64,000 nucleotides of DNA from a virus (lineage: Duplodnaviria; Caudoviricetes). The notes beneath the pieces are model-generated. The model saw only the letters and a program-made list of their open reading frames with translations, did not search any database and was not told where the DNA came from. The stretch's first letter is position 1; each line of letters opens with the position of its first letter. The stretch is taken from positions 64,001 through 128,000 of IMG/VR virus record IMGVR_UViG_3300022555_000003; one strand, 5' to 3'. Shown one piece after another: positions 52,527 through 59,705 of this stretch. The position numbers and the translations under genes were made by a program.

Positions 52527-52688
52527 TATTTTCAAAGCGCACAAAAAGTTATTGGGAAGGGTGATCTCCAACTCAGTAATAAATGTTCAGGGGTTCGACT
52601 CCCTTGTCAGCGTTACAGCTGAACGGGTCCATGTAGAATTAGTGGCCACTGAGTCTCATACATTGAATTTTGGTGCGCTTTGAAAATA
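52527..52688 (+). ncRNA. Candidate structured RNA with 16-bp closing helix and tRNA T-arm
   Basis: TATTTTCAAAGCGCAC (52527-52542) is the exact reverse complement of 52673-52688; internal AGGGG-TTCGACT-CCCTT. Confidence 0.55.
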
Positions 52689-52690
52689 TT

Positions 52691-52981
52691 ATGAAAATTT
52701 TTACGGATGAAATCGACAGCAGAGCAGAATTGTTTGTTAATGACAATTTTAGCAATCCAACAGACAACGTCAGATTGATTGTCAAAACAGCTATGCTCAT
52801 TGGGGCGTCTATCACAGTAGAATACAATAGCAACTGTTCAAATATTAGTTCAAAAATCTCAGAAATTAGTATTGACGGCAGAAAAAGATGCTATTATGTA
52901 TTAGGTGTTTATTGTCCGTATGATGTAGTTAATGAAGCAATATGTGATTCATGTATTGCTTGTGGACGACTTGGAGATTAA
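52691..52981 (+). CDS. Hypothetical protein with C-terminal Cys cluster
   Basis: C...YCP...CDSCIAC; start uncertain. Confidence 0.45.
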   Translation: MKIFTDEIDSRAELFVNDNFSNPTDNVRLIVKTAMLIGASITVEYNSNCSNISSKISEISIDGRKRCYYVLGVYCPYDVVNEAICDSCIACGRLGD

Positions 52982-52985
52982 AAAT

Positions 52986-54002
52986 ATGAGCGACATAACA
53001 CGAAAATTAGCGACAGTTAGAAAAATTTCAAATATTACTGCAATCCCAGACGCAGACAACATTGTCTGCGCTCAGGTTGATGGATGGAAGGTTGTTGTCC
53101 TAAAGGATCAATTTAGGATTGGCGAGTATGCAGTGTACTTTGAAATTGATTCTTGGATTCCAAAAGACATTGCTCCGTTCCTAACTAAGCCTGGACAACC
53201 TGCCAAAGAATATGAAGGCGTTGTTGGTAATCGGCTTAAGACTATTCGATTGAGAAATCAATTATCTCAAGGACTGTTGATGCCGTTATCTGTTCTACCT
53301 TCAGACGTTAATTATGAACTTGGTTCAGATGTCACAGACTTGTTAGGCATTCTCAAATATGAAGCTCCTGTACCGAACGAAATCGCAGCTCAAGTAAAAG
53401 GTCACTTTCCAAATTTCATTGGCAAAACTGATCAAGAACGTTGCCAAAATTTAACGAACGAAATTGAACAATGGTCATCGGATCCAACAATGACATGGGA
53501 AGTAACAGAAAAGATCGATGGAAAATCTATCACATTTTTTCAAAGAAATGGTGAGGTTAGTTACTGTGGACGGAACTACGAGTTCAAAGATGTAACAACT
53601 CATTCTATTTCTAATGTTAATATTGAAACAATGTTTGCTGATAAAAGTCTGAACATTGCAATTCAAGGCGAAAAAGTTGGACCAGGAATTCAGAACAACA
53701 AGTACAAACTAAACAAGCACTTCTTTTATGTGTTTGATATTTTTGATATCGACAATCAAACGTATTTCACACCAGCAGATCGGCAGAAATATGTTATGGA
53801 CCATAATCTGTTGCATGTTCCAATCTTAAATAAAACTGCTAATTTGAAATCAGTTGATGAACTGTTAGCAGACGCAGACGGCAAATCAATTGTTTGCTCA
53901 ACACTGGACCGTGAAGGAATGGTATTTAAGGCTAACAATGGACGAGGTAATTTTAAGGCAATCTCAAATAAATTTCTTTTGAAATATTCTGACAGAGATT
54001 AA
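52986..54002 (+). CDS. RNA ligase, Rnl2-like DRB0094 family
   Basis: N-terminal RKLATVRKI...AVYFEIDSWIP; motif I TEKIDGKS; QGEKVGPGIQ; FDIF; REGMVFK; FKAISNKFLLK. Confidence 0.9.
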   Translation: MSDITRKLATVRKISNITAIPDADNIVCAQVDGWKVVVLKDQFRIGEYAVYFEIDSWIPKDIAPFLTKPGQPAKEYEGVVGNRLKTIRLRNQLSQGLLMPLSVLPSDVNYELGSDVTDLLGILKYEAPVPNEIAAQVKGHFPNFIGKTDQERCQNLTNEIEQWSSDPTMTWEVTEKIDGKSITFFQRNGEVSYCGRNYEFKDVTTHSISNVNIETMFADKSLNIAIQGEKVGPGIQNNKYKLNKHFFYVFDIFDIDNQTYFTPADRQKYVMDHNLLHVPILNKTANLKSVDELLADADGKSIVCSTLDREGMVFKANNGRGNFKAISNKFLLKYSDRD

Positions 54003-57529: not shown

Positions 57530-57919
57530 ATGCAAATCAAATCCAAATCTGGTAAAATACTACATACATTTGATGATAAGACAGATCTGTATGGAGCAAA
57601 TTTAGATCGATTACATTTGCACAATGCAGATTTACGTGGAGCAGATTTGACTTGGGCAACTTTATGTCACACAAATCTGAATGACGCCGATTTAAGCCAT
57701 TCAAATTTGTGGTGGGCAGATTTGAGTTTTACATTGATGAGTGGTACAAATCTACATGGAGCAAATTTAGATTGTGTAAACATGTATTGTGCGGATCTAC
57801 GTGGAGCAAATTTAGAAAATATAGTACTAAACGAAAATACTAATATTGGTCCATCAACTAAACTTGATCCTGAGCAGCTTACATATTTGATGTTAAGAGG
57901 AATTAGATATGGAGATTAA
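57530..57919 (+). CDS. Capped pentapeptide-repeat protein, copy 10
   Basis: MQIKSKSG...LDPEQLTYLMLRG. Confidence 0.85.
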   Translation: MQIKSKSGKILHTFDDKTDLYGANLDRLHLHNADLRGADLTWATLCHTNLNDADLSHSNLWWADLSFTLMSGTNLHGANLDCVNMYCADLRGANLENIVLNENTNIGPSTKLDPEQLTYLMLRGIRYGD

Positions 57920-58355
57920 AACAAAATTTGGTGCAGTAATATTTATAACATTTAATGATACATTGGTTGGTGAAAATTTATGGGGAGCCGACTTTAGTCA
58001 TGCAGATTTCAATGGTATGAATTTAAGTTATGTAAATTTGTGTGAATCAAATTTATATTCTGTAAATTTCTGTCAAGCAGATTTAAGTGGAGCAGACTTA
58101 CTTGGAGCAAACTTATGTAAATCTGATTTACGTGGAGCTAATTTATTTGGAGCAGATTTATTTTGTACAAATCTAATAGGTGCTAATTTAAGTGGAGCAA
58201 ATTTATGTAATGTTGATTTACGTGGAGTCGATTTACGTGGAGCAAAGTTAGATAATGTTATAATAGATCGATTTACAAGAATTAGCAGTACAACTAAAAT
58301 AAGTAAAAAACAACTTACTTATCTATTATTAATTGGTCTCAAATATGCAAATTAA
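57909..58355 (+). CDS. Capped pentapeptide-repeat protein, copy 11
   Basis: MEIKTKFG...ISKKQLTYLLLIG. Confidence 0.85.
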   Translation: MEIKTKFGAVIFITFNDTLVGENLWGADFSHADFNGMNLSYVNLCESNLYSVNFCQADLSGADLLGANLCKSDLRGANLFGADLFCTNLIGANLSGANLCNVDLRGVDLRGAKLDNVIIDRFTRISSTTKISKKQLTYLLLIGLKYAN

Positions 58356-58695
58356 CACAACAATAAGATCATTAACTGGTGAATTATTGCATGTTGGTCC
58401 CGAACTAATTCTATCCAATTTGGATTTAAGTTATGCTAATTTATATGGTAGACGTTTGAGTTTTACATTGATGAGTGGTACAAATCTACTTGGGGCAGAT
58501 TTATTTGGAGCAAACTTACGTGGTGCAGATTTAAGTGGTGCAGATTTAAGTGGTGCTGATATGCGGCAAGCAGATCTACGTGGAGCAAAGTTAGATAATG
58601 TGAAAATAGATGACGATACAAGAATTAGCAGTACAACTAAAATAAGTAAAAAACAACTTACATATTTACTTTTGTTGGGCCTTAATTATGGGTAG
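58345..58695 (+). CDS. Capped pentapeptide-repeat protein, copy 12
   Basis: MQINTTIRSLTG...ISKKQLTYLLLLG. Confidence 0.85.
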   Translation: MQINTTIRSLTGELLHVGPELILSNLDLSYANLYGRRLSFTLMSGTNLLGADLFGANLRGADLSGADLSGADMRQADLRGAKLDNVKIDDDTRISSTTKISKKQLTYLLLLGLNYG

Positions 58696-58726
58696 CATAA
58701 ATAAAATTGTAGATAGGAAATTAATT

Positions 58727-58798
58727 GCGAGGTTCGTCTAATCAGGACGCCACCCATTCCCGGTGGAAATGGAAGTTGAACGCTTTCACTTCGCTCCA
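58727..58798 (+). tRNA. Non-canonical tRNA with Gly-type acceptor end and atypical loops
   Basis: Acceptor GCGAGGU/ACUUCGC, U73, encoded CCA; D stem GUC/GAC; anticodon stem CCACC/GGUGG, loop CAUUCCC; T stem GGAAG/CUUUC, loop UUGAACG. Confidence 0.75.
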
Positions 58799-58805
58799 AA
58801 CAAAC

Positions 58806-58994
58806 ATGCCTTTATATGAATATCGATGTTCGAAATGTAATAAATTATTAGAATTGTTTAGACCAATGGATAATCACCCAGCGTGCTGTCCAACTTGCTA
58901 TGAACCTAAGGGACTAGTTTTATTACCAAGCAGAAGTTCTTTTAAATTGAAAGGTACCGGTTGGTATCAGACTGATTACGCTGGAAAGAAATGA
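58806..58994 (+). CDS. FmdB-family zinc-ribbon protein
   Basis: MPLYEYRCSKC...CPTC...SSFKLKGTGWYQTDY. Confidence 0.85.
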   Translation: MPLYEYRCSKCNKLLELFRPMDNHPACCPTCYEPKGLVLLPSRSSFKLKGTGWYQTDYAGKK

Positions 58995-59676: not shown

Positions 59677-59690
59677 ATTAAGTCCTAAAG

Positions 59691-59705
59691 ATAAATACTT
59701 ATATG
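59691..59705 (+). promoter_or_regulatory. T4-like late promoter motif ATAAATA (representative copy)
   Basis: Same motif at 2757, 5885, 10872, 11163, 11688, 14953, 15237, 17067, 18301, 22726, 31584, 41785 and 58697, mostly just before structural-type genes; resembles the T4 gp55 promoter TATAAATA. Confidence 0.7.

Follow-up and report, generated by a model that had tools for sequence, protein, structure and literature searches.

A conserved tRNA-like RNA gene in a phage genome, apparently derived from tRNA-Glu and lacking the features of decoding tRNAs

Phage tRNA genes are now read either as supplements to codon usage or as nuclease-resistant replacements for host tRNAs. The staphylococcal non-proteinogenic tRNA-Gly species, which act as donors for Fem, have weak-looking pairs in the T stem. 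Among phage enzymes, Mom uses Gly-tRNA-Gly as a co-substrate (PMC13219725). Nuclease-resistant phage tRNAs (PMC10264068; PMC11555353; PMC12445682) carry changes concentrated in the anticodon arm, occur in phages with RNA-repair enzymes and are read as counter-defence: they decode, and they replace the host tRNA that has been cleaved. Other RNAs are tRNA-shaped without being adaptors, i.e., the YrlA-type Y RNAs (with Ro60 and RtcB) and mascRNA, which are processed by tRNA enzymes; YrlA is linked to RNA-repair operons, and in mascRNA the anticodon loop is the unconstrained part of the molecule.

Here, we describe a gene for a tRNA-like RNA that resembles each of these in part. Like the nuclease-resistant tRNAs, it is phage-encoded, has its changes concentrated in the anticodon arm and occurs in a phage with an RNA-repair enzyme; however, replacement of a cleaved host tRNA by this RNA is not plausible because U33, purine 37 and a fixed 7-nt anticodon loop are absent. 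With the staphylococcal tRNA-Gly and the Mom co-substrate it shares G1-C72, C2-G71, U73, a D loop that has lost G18-G19, weak-looking pairs in the T stem and a proposed use outside the ribosome, but those are true tRNA-Gly with a normal UCC loop, whereas the body is here of the Glu type and no Fem or Mom gene was found in the phage record (estimated to be 74% complete). Unlike YrlA and mascRNA, it is a full four-arm cloverleaf without a Y-RNA stem, and the same 74% complete record gave no hit to Ro60/TROVE (PF05731); the partner ligase of YrlA is RtcB, whereas the ligase associated with the present element is of the Rnl2 type. No matching family exists in Rfam 15, nor did literature searches return a described family of such tRNA look-alikes.

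The window (the whole stretch of DNA that was analysed, 64,000 nt) belongs to an IMG/VR virus record of 242 kb that has inverted terminal repeats and in which the element lies at G000:C1:122727-122798. The same phage turns up in the freshwater and lake metagenomes of four studies, and the DNA contigs of four runs are identical across the element. Judged by DnaB, the cultured phages closest to it are PA5oct-like and Atu_ph07-like jumbo phages (approximately 45% identity). The features of the locus, in window coordinates, are as follows.

52932-54002, plus strand: Rnl2-type RNA ligase (PF09414 and PF21189), ending 4.7 kb upstream of the element and associated with it by context
58333-58695, plus strand: upstream gene, which closes an array of pentapeptide-repeat genes (PF00805)
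58697-58704, plus strand: CATAAATA, a one-base variant of the promoter-like motif GATAAATA, 22 nt upstream of G1
58727-58798, plus strand: the element, a putative tRNA-Glu-derived, non-decoding tRNA-like RNA gene of 72 nt with encoded CCA; 21-pair cloverleaf, homologue in contig L053, covariance model R1
58727-58733, plus strand: 5′ strand of the acceptor stem, pairing with 58788-58794 (7 bp, one G.U)
58736-58748, plus strand: D arm, GUCU / AAUCA / GGAC, a 4-bp stem of the tRNA-Glu type with a 5-nt loop without G18-G19
58750-58766, plus strand: anticodon-arm equivalent with a 5-bp stem, CCACC/GGUGG, identical to a widespread tRNA-Glu(UUC) stem
58755-58761, plus strand: anticodon-equivalent loop CAUUCCC, with A33, C37 and UUC central
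58767-58770, plus strand: variable loop AAAU, 4 nt, with A46 present, residue 47 absent and U48 pairing with A15
58771-58787, plus strand: T arm, GGAAG / UUGAACG / CUUUC, with G56 and G60 replacing the universal C56 and U60
58788-58798, plus strand: 3′ strand of the acceptor stem, then the discriminator U73 and the encoded CCA; no difference between the window and L053
58806-58994, plus strand: downstream gene for a 62-aa Zn-ribbon (FmdB-type) protein (PF09723)

The element occupies most of the 110-nt gap between the pentapeptide-repeat gene and the Zn-ribbon gene, within an accessory region that also contains NADAR, pentapeptide arrays and kinase/ART-like genes. A 492-aa neighbour considered as the polynucleotide kinase of a repair system turned out to be a Zeta-like kinase fused to an ART-like domain.

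The cloverleaf has all 21 of its 21 pairs and ends in U73-CCA. The acceptor stem is built from G1-C72, C2-G71, G3-C70, A4-U69, G5.U68, G6-C67 and U7-A66, the T stem from G49-C65, G50.U64, A51-U63, A52-U62 and G53-C61. It is the minimum free energy fold (-24.6 kcal/mol, z -2.3). The preliminary description of this DNA, made from its letters, had listed four intact stems, the acceptor end with U73 and CCA, the non-canonical loops and the A-U pair at 51-63, all of which hold; the folded loop CAUUCCC likewise bears out its statement that U33 and a purine at 37 are missing and that UUC is central. The fold is real and more than chance. A strict scan for tRNA geometry with 21 of 21 pairs returned eight sites in the 242-kb genome, namely seven true tRNAs and the element, while the same scan of 40 shuffled genomes gave one site and none with CCA; the chance expectation of a 21-pair cloverleaf is therefore ~0.025 per shuffled genome. 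No second copy of the element was found in the phage genome.

Standard annotation passes over this RNA. ARAGORN with default settings does not call it, in line with the non-canonical loops, and it was unmatched in a search with the Rfam tRNA family RF00005 (gathering threshold, 29 bits) even at E<=10: both miss the element because G18-G19, U33, purine 37 and C56 are absent. A call as tRNA-Glu(UUC) that ARAGORN makes under relaxed settings was set aside as evidence, as there are ~105 such calls per shuffled genome.

The relationship of the element to known tRNAs was examined with the covariance model R1, built from two copies (the window copy and its homologue in L053). In the whole E. coli K-12 chromosome, R1 has exactly four matches, which are the tRNA-Glu genes gltT/U/V/W (46.6 bits, E ~2e-11; one of the four is annotated gltT); no other E. 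coli K-12 tRNA was matched, and no tRNA-Gly at E<=10. Similarity to the phage's own tRNA-Gly is low. A further comparison took in 77 canonical tRNA-Glu(UUC) genes with the anticodon stem of the element. At positions outside the search pattern, the element matches all or nearly all of these genes, at U8, C9, G10-U13 and A46 as well as at G53, U54, U55, A58 and in the 4-nt variable loop. The 77 genes have the D stem of the element, but with a loop of 8-9 nt that includes GG. The element differs from every one of them in the D-loop GG, U33, A37, C56, U60, the acceptor pair 2-71 (C-G in the element) and acceptor positions 4-6, and has U73 where their discriminator is G or A, never U.

The core determinants of tRNA-Glu are U11-A24, U13-G22:A46 and the missing residue 47 (PMC9976931). 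The element has all of these, the second as U13.G22/A46. It thereby resembles bacterial tRNA-Glu(UUC) with its “augmented D helix” (e.g., E. coli gltT), which has the same U8-C9, the same stem (G10-U11-C12-U13/G22-G23-A24-C25) and the same U13.G22/A46 triple; both are without residue 47, both have a CCRCC/GGYGG anticodon stem and, as regards the window copy, a central UUC, and G53-C61, U54, U55 and A58 are common to the two. What sets the element apart from bacterial tRNA-Glu(UUC) is its 5-nt D loop without GG, A33, C37, G56, G60, U73, C2-G71, the AGG at acceptor positions 4-6 and the varying loop length among its relatives. The anticodon-loop determinants of GluRS (U34, U35, C36, A37) are incomplete, with C37 in the window and no UUC in L053.

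Bacterial glycine identity resides, in the acceptor arm, in G1-C72, C2-G71 and U73 (PMC9976931). This GlyRS set is present in the element, and L053 has the window's G1-C72, C2-G71, G3-C70, U73 and CCA unchanged. The likeness to glycine identity elements given in the preliminary description thus stands for the acceptor end alone. It is limited to the window/L053 lineage, the wider family carrying A73, C73 or G73. The glycine framing is further undermined by R1, which finds tRNA-Glu only, and by the failure to find FemAB or Mom in the phage record. The body of the element is evidently of the tRNA-Glu and not of the tRNA-Gly type, its glycine likeness being confined to the acceptor end, and the RNA derives from a tRNA-Glu.

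A neighbouring 129-aa protein (62% identity) led us to L053, a 4-kb JGI contig of a related phage with the same gene order. It carries a homologous element at 1867-1937, 85% identical to that in the window (61 of 72 positions). The element is the best-conserved stretch of the locus: between the two phages, the flanking genes are 48% identical at four-fold degenerate sites and 64% over their coding DNA, both exceeded by the element (P ~1.6e-10 and P ~1e-4, respectively). In the stems, 41 of the 42 pair cells are standard, and only pair 7-66 is broken. One pair, 49-65, has changed on both sides, from G-C to A-U, and one-sided compatible changes turned C-G into U.G and G.U into G-C; the tertiary 15-48 pair is A/U in the window and G/C in L053. 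The sole indel falls in the anticodon loop, which is CAUUCCC (7 nt) in the window and CAUCCA (6 nt) in L053. An in-frame TTG ORF (58725-58994) runs through the element in the window, but was rejected as a coding sequence: in L053 it suffers a frameshift and a TGA stop, so that coding does not account for the conservation. The two copies show purifying selection on the element since the two phage lineages split, and a common ancestor that already had the short D loop, A33 and G56, kept ever since. The claim that this is not a decayed tRNA is borne out, with conservation above the neutral level and stems kept by compensatory changes both in L053 and in the wider family.

Several other searches for relatives were less productive. 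Searched by BLAST in phage records and in genomes of E. coli, the element gave nothing useful, and a model search of 49 related jumbo-phage records (DnaB 44-56% identical) gave no match. G046 has the gene for the 129-aa neighbour, but in an unrelated context with no tRNA there; H64 was rejected since its locus is not syntenic; and L056, with a relative of the Zn-ribbon gene (such relatives being 52-53% identical), has an ordinary Shine-Dalgarno leader and no element. Exact and IUPAC scans of the viral contigs with the anticodon arm, the D arm, the acceptor plus D arm or the T arm returned chance hits or none, and a first scan of the metagenome contigs for family members found nothing.

A scan with the short D arm and the start of the anticodon stem, run on viral and on metagenome contigs, did reveal relatives. 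The viral contigs hold three further cloverleaf-like sequences (L232/L234, L231/L235 and the weaker L230), the metagenome contigs 16 model hits in 10 contigs, or 12 distinct sequences; the lowest-scoring of these 16 hits, L250 3313-3385, is the canonical tRNA-Glu(UUC) of its contig. Family members have a 5-nt D loop without GG, a 4-nt variable loop and mostly non-canonical T loops, and an encoded NCCA end in nearly all of them (L230 is without). The T loop of L245/L277 is identical to the UUGAACG of the window. The anticodon arms are abnormal, with loops of 6 nt (CCUCAA, CUUCAA), of 7 nt without U33 (CAUUAAG) or of 8, 10 or 13 nt, or else with a broken stem. ARAGORN calls none of the elements with the short D arm, and several contigs carry two or three diverged copies in tandem.

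The stems of the family covary. Across five sequences, 13 of the 21 pairs change on both sides; the corresponding count for the 12 independent sequences from metagenomes is 14 of 21, including three of the five anticodon-stem pairs. None of 500 shuffles reached the observed values in either set, and slid controls gave at most four double-sided pairs in the first and nine in the second; both alignments had been fitted to the model, and covariation is to be expected of any set derived from tRNAs. All seven acceptor pairs show double-sided changes across the family, and the tertiary 15-48 pair is complementary in five out of five sequences, with three pair types. The invariance of the D arm is by construction, as the search pattern fixes it. 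By these sequences, the element belongs to an unannotated family of tRNA-like RNAs in phage and metagenome contigs.

Some members deserve separate mention. Four GC-rich contigs (L272 291-974, L284 2134-2487, L295 38-796 and L279 306-528) hold tandem arrays of two to three diverged members, with T loops of 8 nt and 6-nt anticodon-equivalent loops (CCUCAA/CUUCAA) in which the opal-suppressor anticodon UCA is in register when counted from the 5′ side. The 13-nt loop of L245 663-740 (= L277 2012-2089) holds the palindrome GUAACGUUAC, by which two molecules could pair. A member with an 8-nt loop (L241 5659-5731) is flanked by the gene for a GatA-like amidase (PF01425) and that for an NAD-dependent DNA ligase; that contig is bacterial-looking, and the family may extend beyond phages.

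An Rnl2-type RNA ligase recurs near the elements. In lineage G051, the family member is 215 nt upstream of a PF09414 ligase gene, and in G050 it is 4.4 kb downstream of one; wherever a phage lineage offered enough context (the window, G050 and G051), a PF09414 ligase thus occurs within 5 kb, in three out of three. Among control viral records, which are smaller, unrelated phage contigs, 0 of 43 have a PF09414 ligase, as against 3 of 4 (Fisher P ~2.5e-4). Phages with tRNAs are more likely to carry RNA ligases anyway. Directly upstream of the ligase gene in the window there is a 162-nt structured RNA (52527-52688; MFE -55.3 kcal/mol, z -4.8) with a 16-bp closing helix, a canonical T arm and no Rfam match; no kinship between it and the element was found.

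We favour the reading that the element encodes a trans-acting mimic of tRNA-Glu in a phage-host conflict over tRNAs, transcribed and processed like a tRNA, and would put its probability at roughly 0.45. Transcription would start at a GATAAATA-type promoter of the element itself and continue into the downstream genes; like the ordinary tRNAs of the phage, the RNA would be freed by RNase P and 3′ trimming, and the excised RNA would act in trans as the mimic. It might then serve as an uncleavable decoy for, or a competitive inhibitor of, a host enzyme recognising the tRNA body, e.g., a tRNA-targeting defence nuclease, or alternatively as the partner RNA of the neighbouring Rnl2-type RNA-repair ligase. 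By the comparisons above, selection has kept the Glu core (the D stem, U13.G22/A46, the lack of residue 47 and the 15-48 pair), the acceptor stem, the T stem and CCA; lost are the nucleotides universal to decoding tRNAs (G18-G19, U33, purine 37, C56) and the fixed 7-nt loop. A nuclease decoy would fit the context, with an RNA-repair ligase nearby in three lineages, but we know of no bacterial defence nuclease specific for tRNA-Glu. A single protein partner that reads the anticodon loop throughout is unlikely because these loops are heterogeneous across the family. Counting against a mimic are that the association with the ligase rests on three lineages and that the element, 7 nt from the next start codon, is placed so as to suit a role in cis.

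A broader version of this idea is possible but doubtful: that of a dedicated phage family of tRNA-Glu mimics with disabled anticodons working with Rnl2-type ligases, whether as nuclease decoys or inhibitors or as an RNA cofactor or scaffold of the ligase, for which Y RNA with Ro60/RtcB would be the analogue. If true, it would amount to a principle of counter-defence distinct from the supply of replacement tRNAs.

The promoter-like motif bears on the transcription of the element. GATAAATA is enriched upstream of the genes and canonical tRNAs of this phage, with 39 of its 65 copies at most 60 nt upstream of ORF starts; 14 copies are at exactly -13 (GATAAATAnnnnnATG), e.g., at 59690-59705 of the window (G000:C1:123690). 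In L053, a consensus GATAAATA is located 17 nt upstream of the element. A late-promoter motif had been reported at 58697: a motif-like site (CATAAATA) is indeed present there, but it is one base off the enriched form. In many late genes, GATAAATA stands 5 nt before the ATG, implying late mRNAs that would be leaderless or nearly so. The missing Shine-Dalgarno sequence at the Zn-ribbon gene was considered as a special feature and dismissed: many genes of the phage are without one. As to the host, this sparing use of Shine-Dalgarno sequences and a GC content of 33% give no more than hints.

The main rival of the mimic reading is a processing signal in cis: the tRNA shape would recruit RNase P and 3′ trimming to cut the pentapeptide/Zn-ribbon transcript, and the excised RNA would have no job of its own. 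The position of the element speaks for it. In the 110-nt gap, CCA is followed after 7 nt (window) or 8 nt (L053) by the ATG of the Zn-ribbon gene, in the same arrangement, so that the downstream mRNA, once cut free, would have an A-rich leader of 7-8 nt, similar to the near-leaderless late mRNAs of the phage; in L231, 20 nt separate the member from the ORF that follows, and variable loops fit a role in which loop identity is irrelevant. RNase P requires hardly more than the acceptor and T arms. Nevertheless, the element preserves its Glu-type D arm, its anticodon stem (three of five pairs compensatory) and its tertiary pair 15-48; punctuation does not readily explain tandem arrays of two to three copies (L272, L284, L295) or the L250 copy, which sits within a 12-gene tRNA array; and C56G alters the elbow that RNase P contacts. 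We consider the cis signal unlikely.

Less probable again is an aminoacylated donor for non-ribosomal chemistry, a role close to that in the preliminary description: the RNA would be charged by GlyRS (through the acceptor) or by GluRS (through the core), escape EF-Tu and the ribosome and feed a transferase. The invariant acceptor end (G1-C72, C2-G71, G3-C70, U73 and CCA) matches bacterial glycine identity (PMC9976931), the weak look of the T-stem pairs G50.U64 and A51-U63 recalls the staphylococcal non-proteinogenic tRNA-Gly, and Mom is a phage enzyme that uses Gly-tRNA-Gly (PMC13219725). Both loops also contain UCC; with respect to C35/C36 of tRNA-Gly, L053 has U34 C35 C36 in register only when its 6-nt loop is counted from the 5′ side, but the window has U35 C36 in register, so that C35 is missing there. 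The Glu-type body does not suit GlyRS; for GluRS, position 37 (where A is expected) and the L053 anticodon are wrong; and acceptor identity varies across the family (A73, C73, G73). Finally, a search for Fem-like or other transferases that might use such a donor came back negative: the phage record (74% complete) gave no hit to FemAB (PF02388), GluRS/GlnRS or GluTR, and Mom (Mu Mom protein, PF25680) is absent from G000 (this record), G050, G051 and G052.

That the RNA still decodes, as an odd tRNA-Glu(UUC) that is, e.g., resistant to a host anticodon nuclease, is distinctly improbable. The window copy does have a 7-nt loop with UUC central on a Glu-type body, and phage tRNAs that escape nucleases through altered anticodon arms are documented (PMC10264068, PMC11555353, PMC12445682). 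A decoding tRNA has a conserved 7-nt loop with U33 and a purine at 37; here, the loops are CAUUCCC and, in the otherwise well-conserved L053 copy, the 6-nt CAUCCA without UUC. Nor can the G18-G19:U55-C56 contact form between the D loop AAUCA and the T loop UUGAACG with G at position 56; a swapped C19-G56 elbow pair was considered and rejected, for L234 has the same D loop with C56. A role as translational adaptor thus appears very unlikely because of the loop indel, A33, C37, the lack of G18-G19 and C56, and the canonical tRNA-Glu(UUC) elsewhere in the same phage genome, to which the lack of an RF00005 match at E<=10 adds. Since the loop length differs between homologues (7 versus 6 nt), the non-ribosomal role put forward in the preliminary description is likely.

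A tRNA pseudogene in slow decay, a chance structure or a coding sequence, for which the silence of the standard tRNA finders and the TTG ORF across the window element might speak, is the most improbable reading and already largely refuted by conservation far above neutral, compensatory stem changes, a chance expectation of 0.025 per genome and the broken ORF in L053.

A conserved, non-decoding family of tRNA-shaped RNAs near RNA-repair ligases would point to a third use of tRNA genes by phages, that is, tRNA mimicry. Such genes are systematically left unannotated, being missed by the standard tRNA finders and Rfam. If the mimic reading is right, they would offer a handle on host enzymes that recognise the tRNA body as opposed to the anticodon, and a testable new player in tRNA-targeting antiphage defence.

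Three further observations concern the same genome. In the pentapeptide-repeat array (57640-58620 of the window), contigs of several lake runs join different places (e.g., 58206 to 58521), which suggests copy-number or recombination variants of the array, or assembly collapse of its repeats. On the minus strand at G000:C1:143244-143331, outside the window, ARAGORN predicts an 88-nt tRNA-Gly(UCC) with a long variable region, a GCG.../...CGC-U-CCA end and encoded CCA, which is absent from the RF00005 matches. On the plus strand at G000:C1:235496-235856, likewise outside the window, it predicts a permuted tmRNA with a tag peptide ending in ...NEDVLA*.
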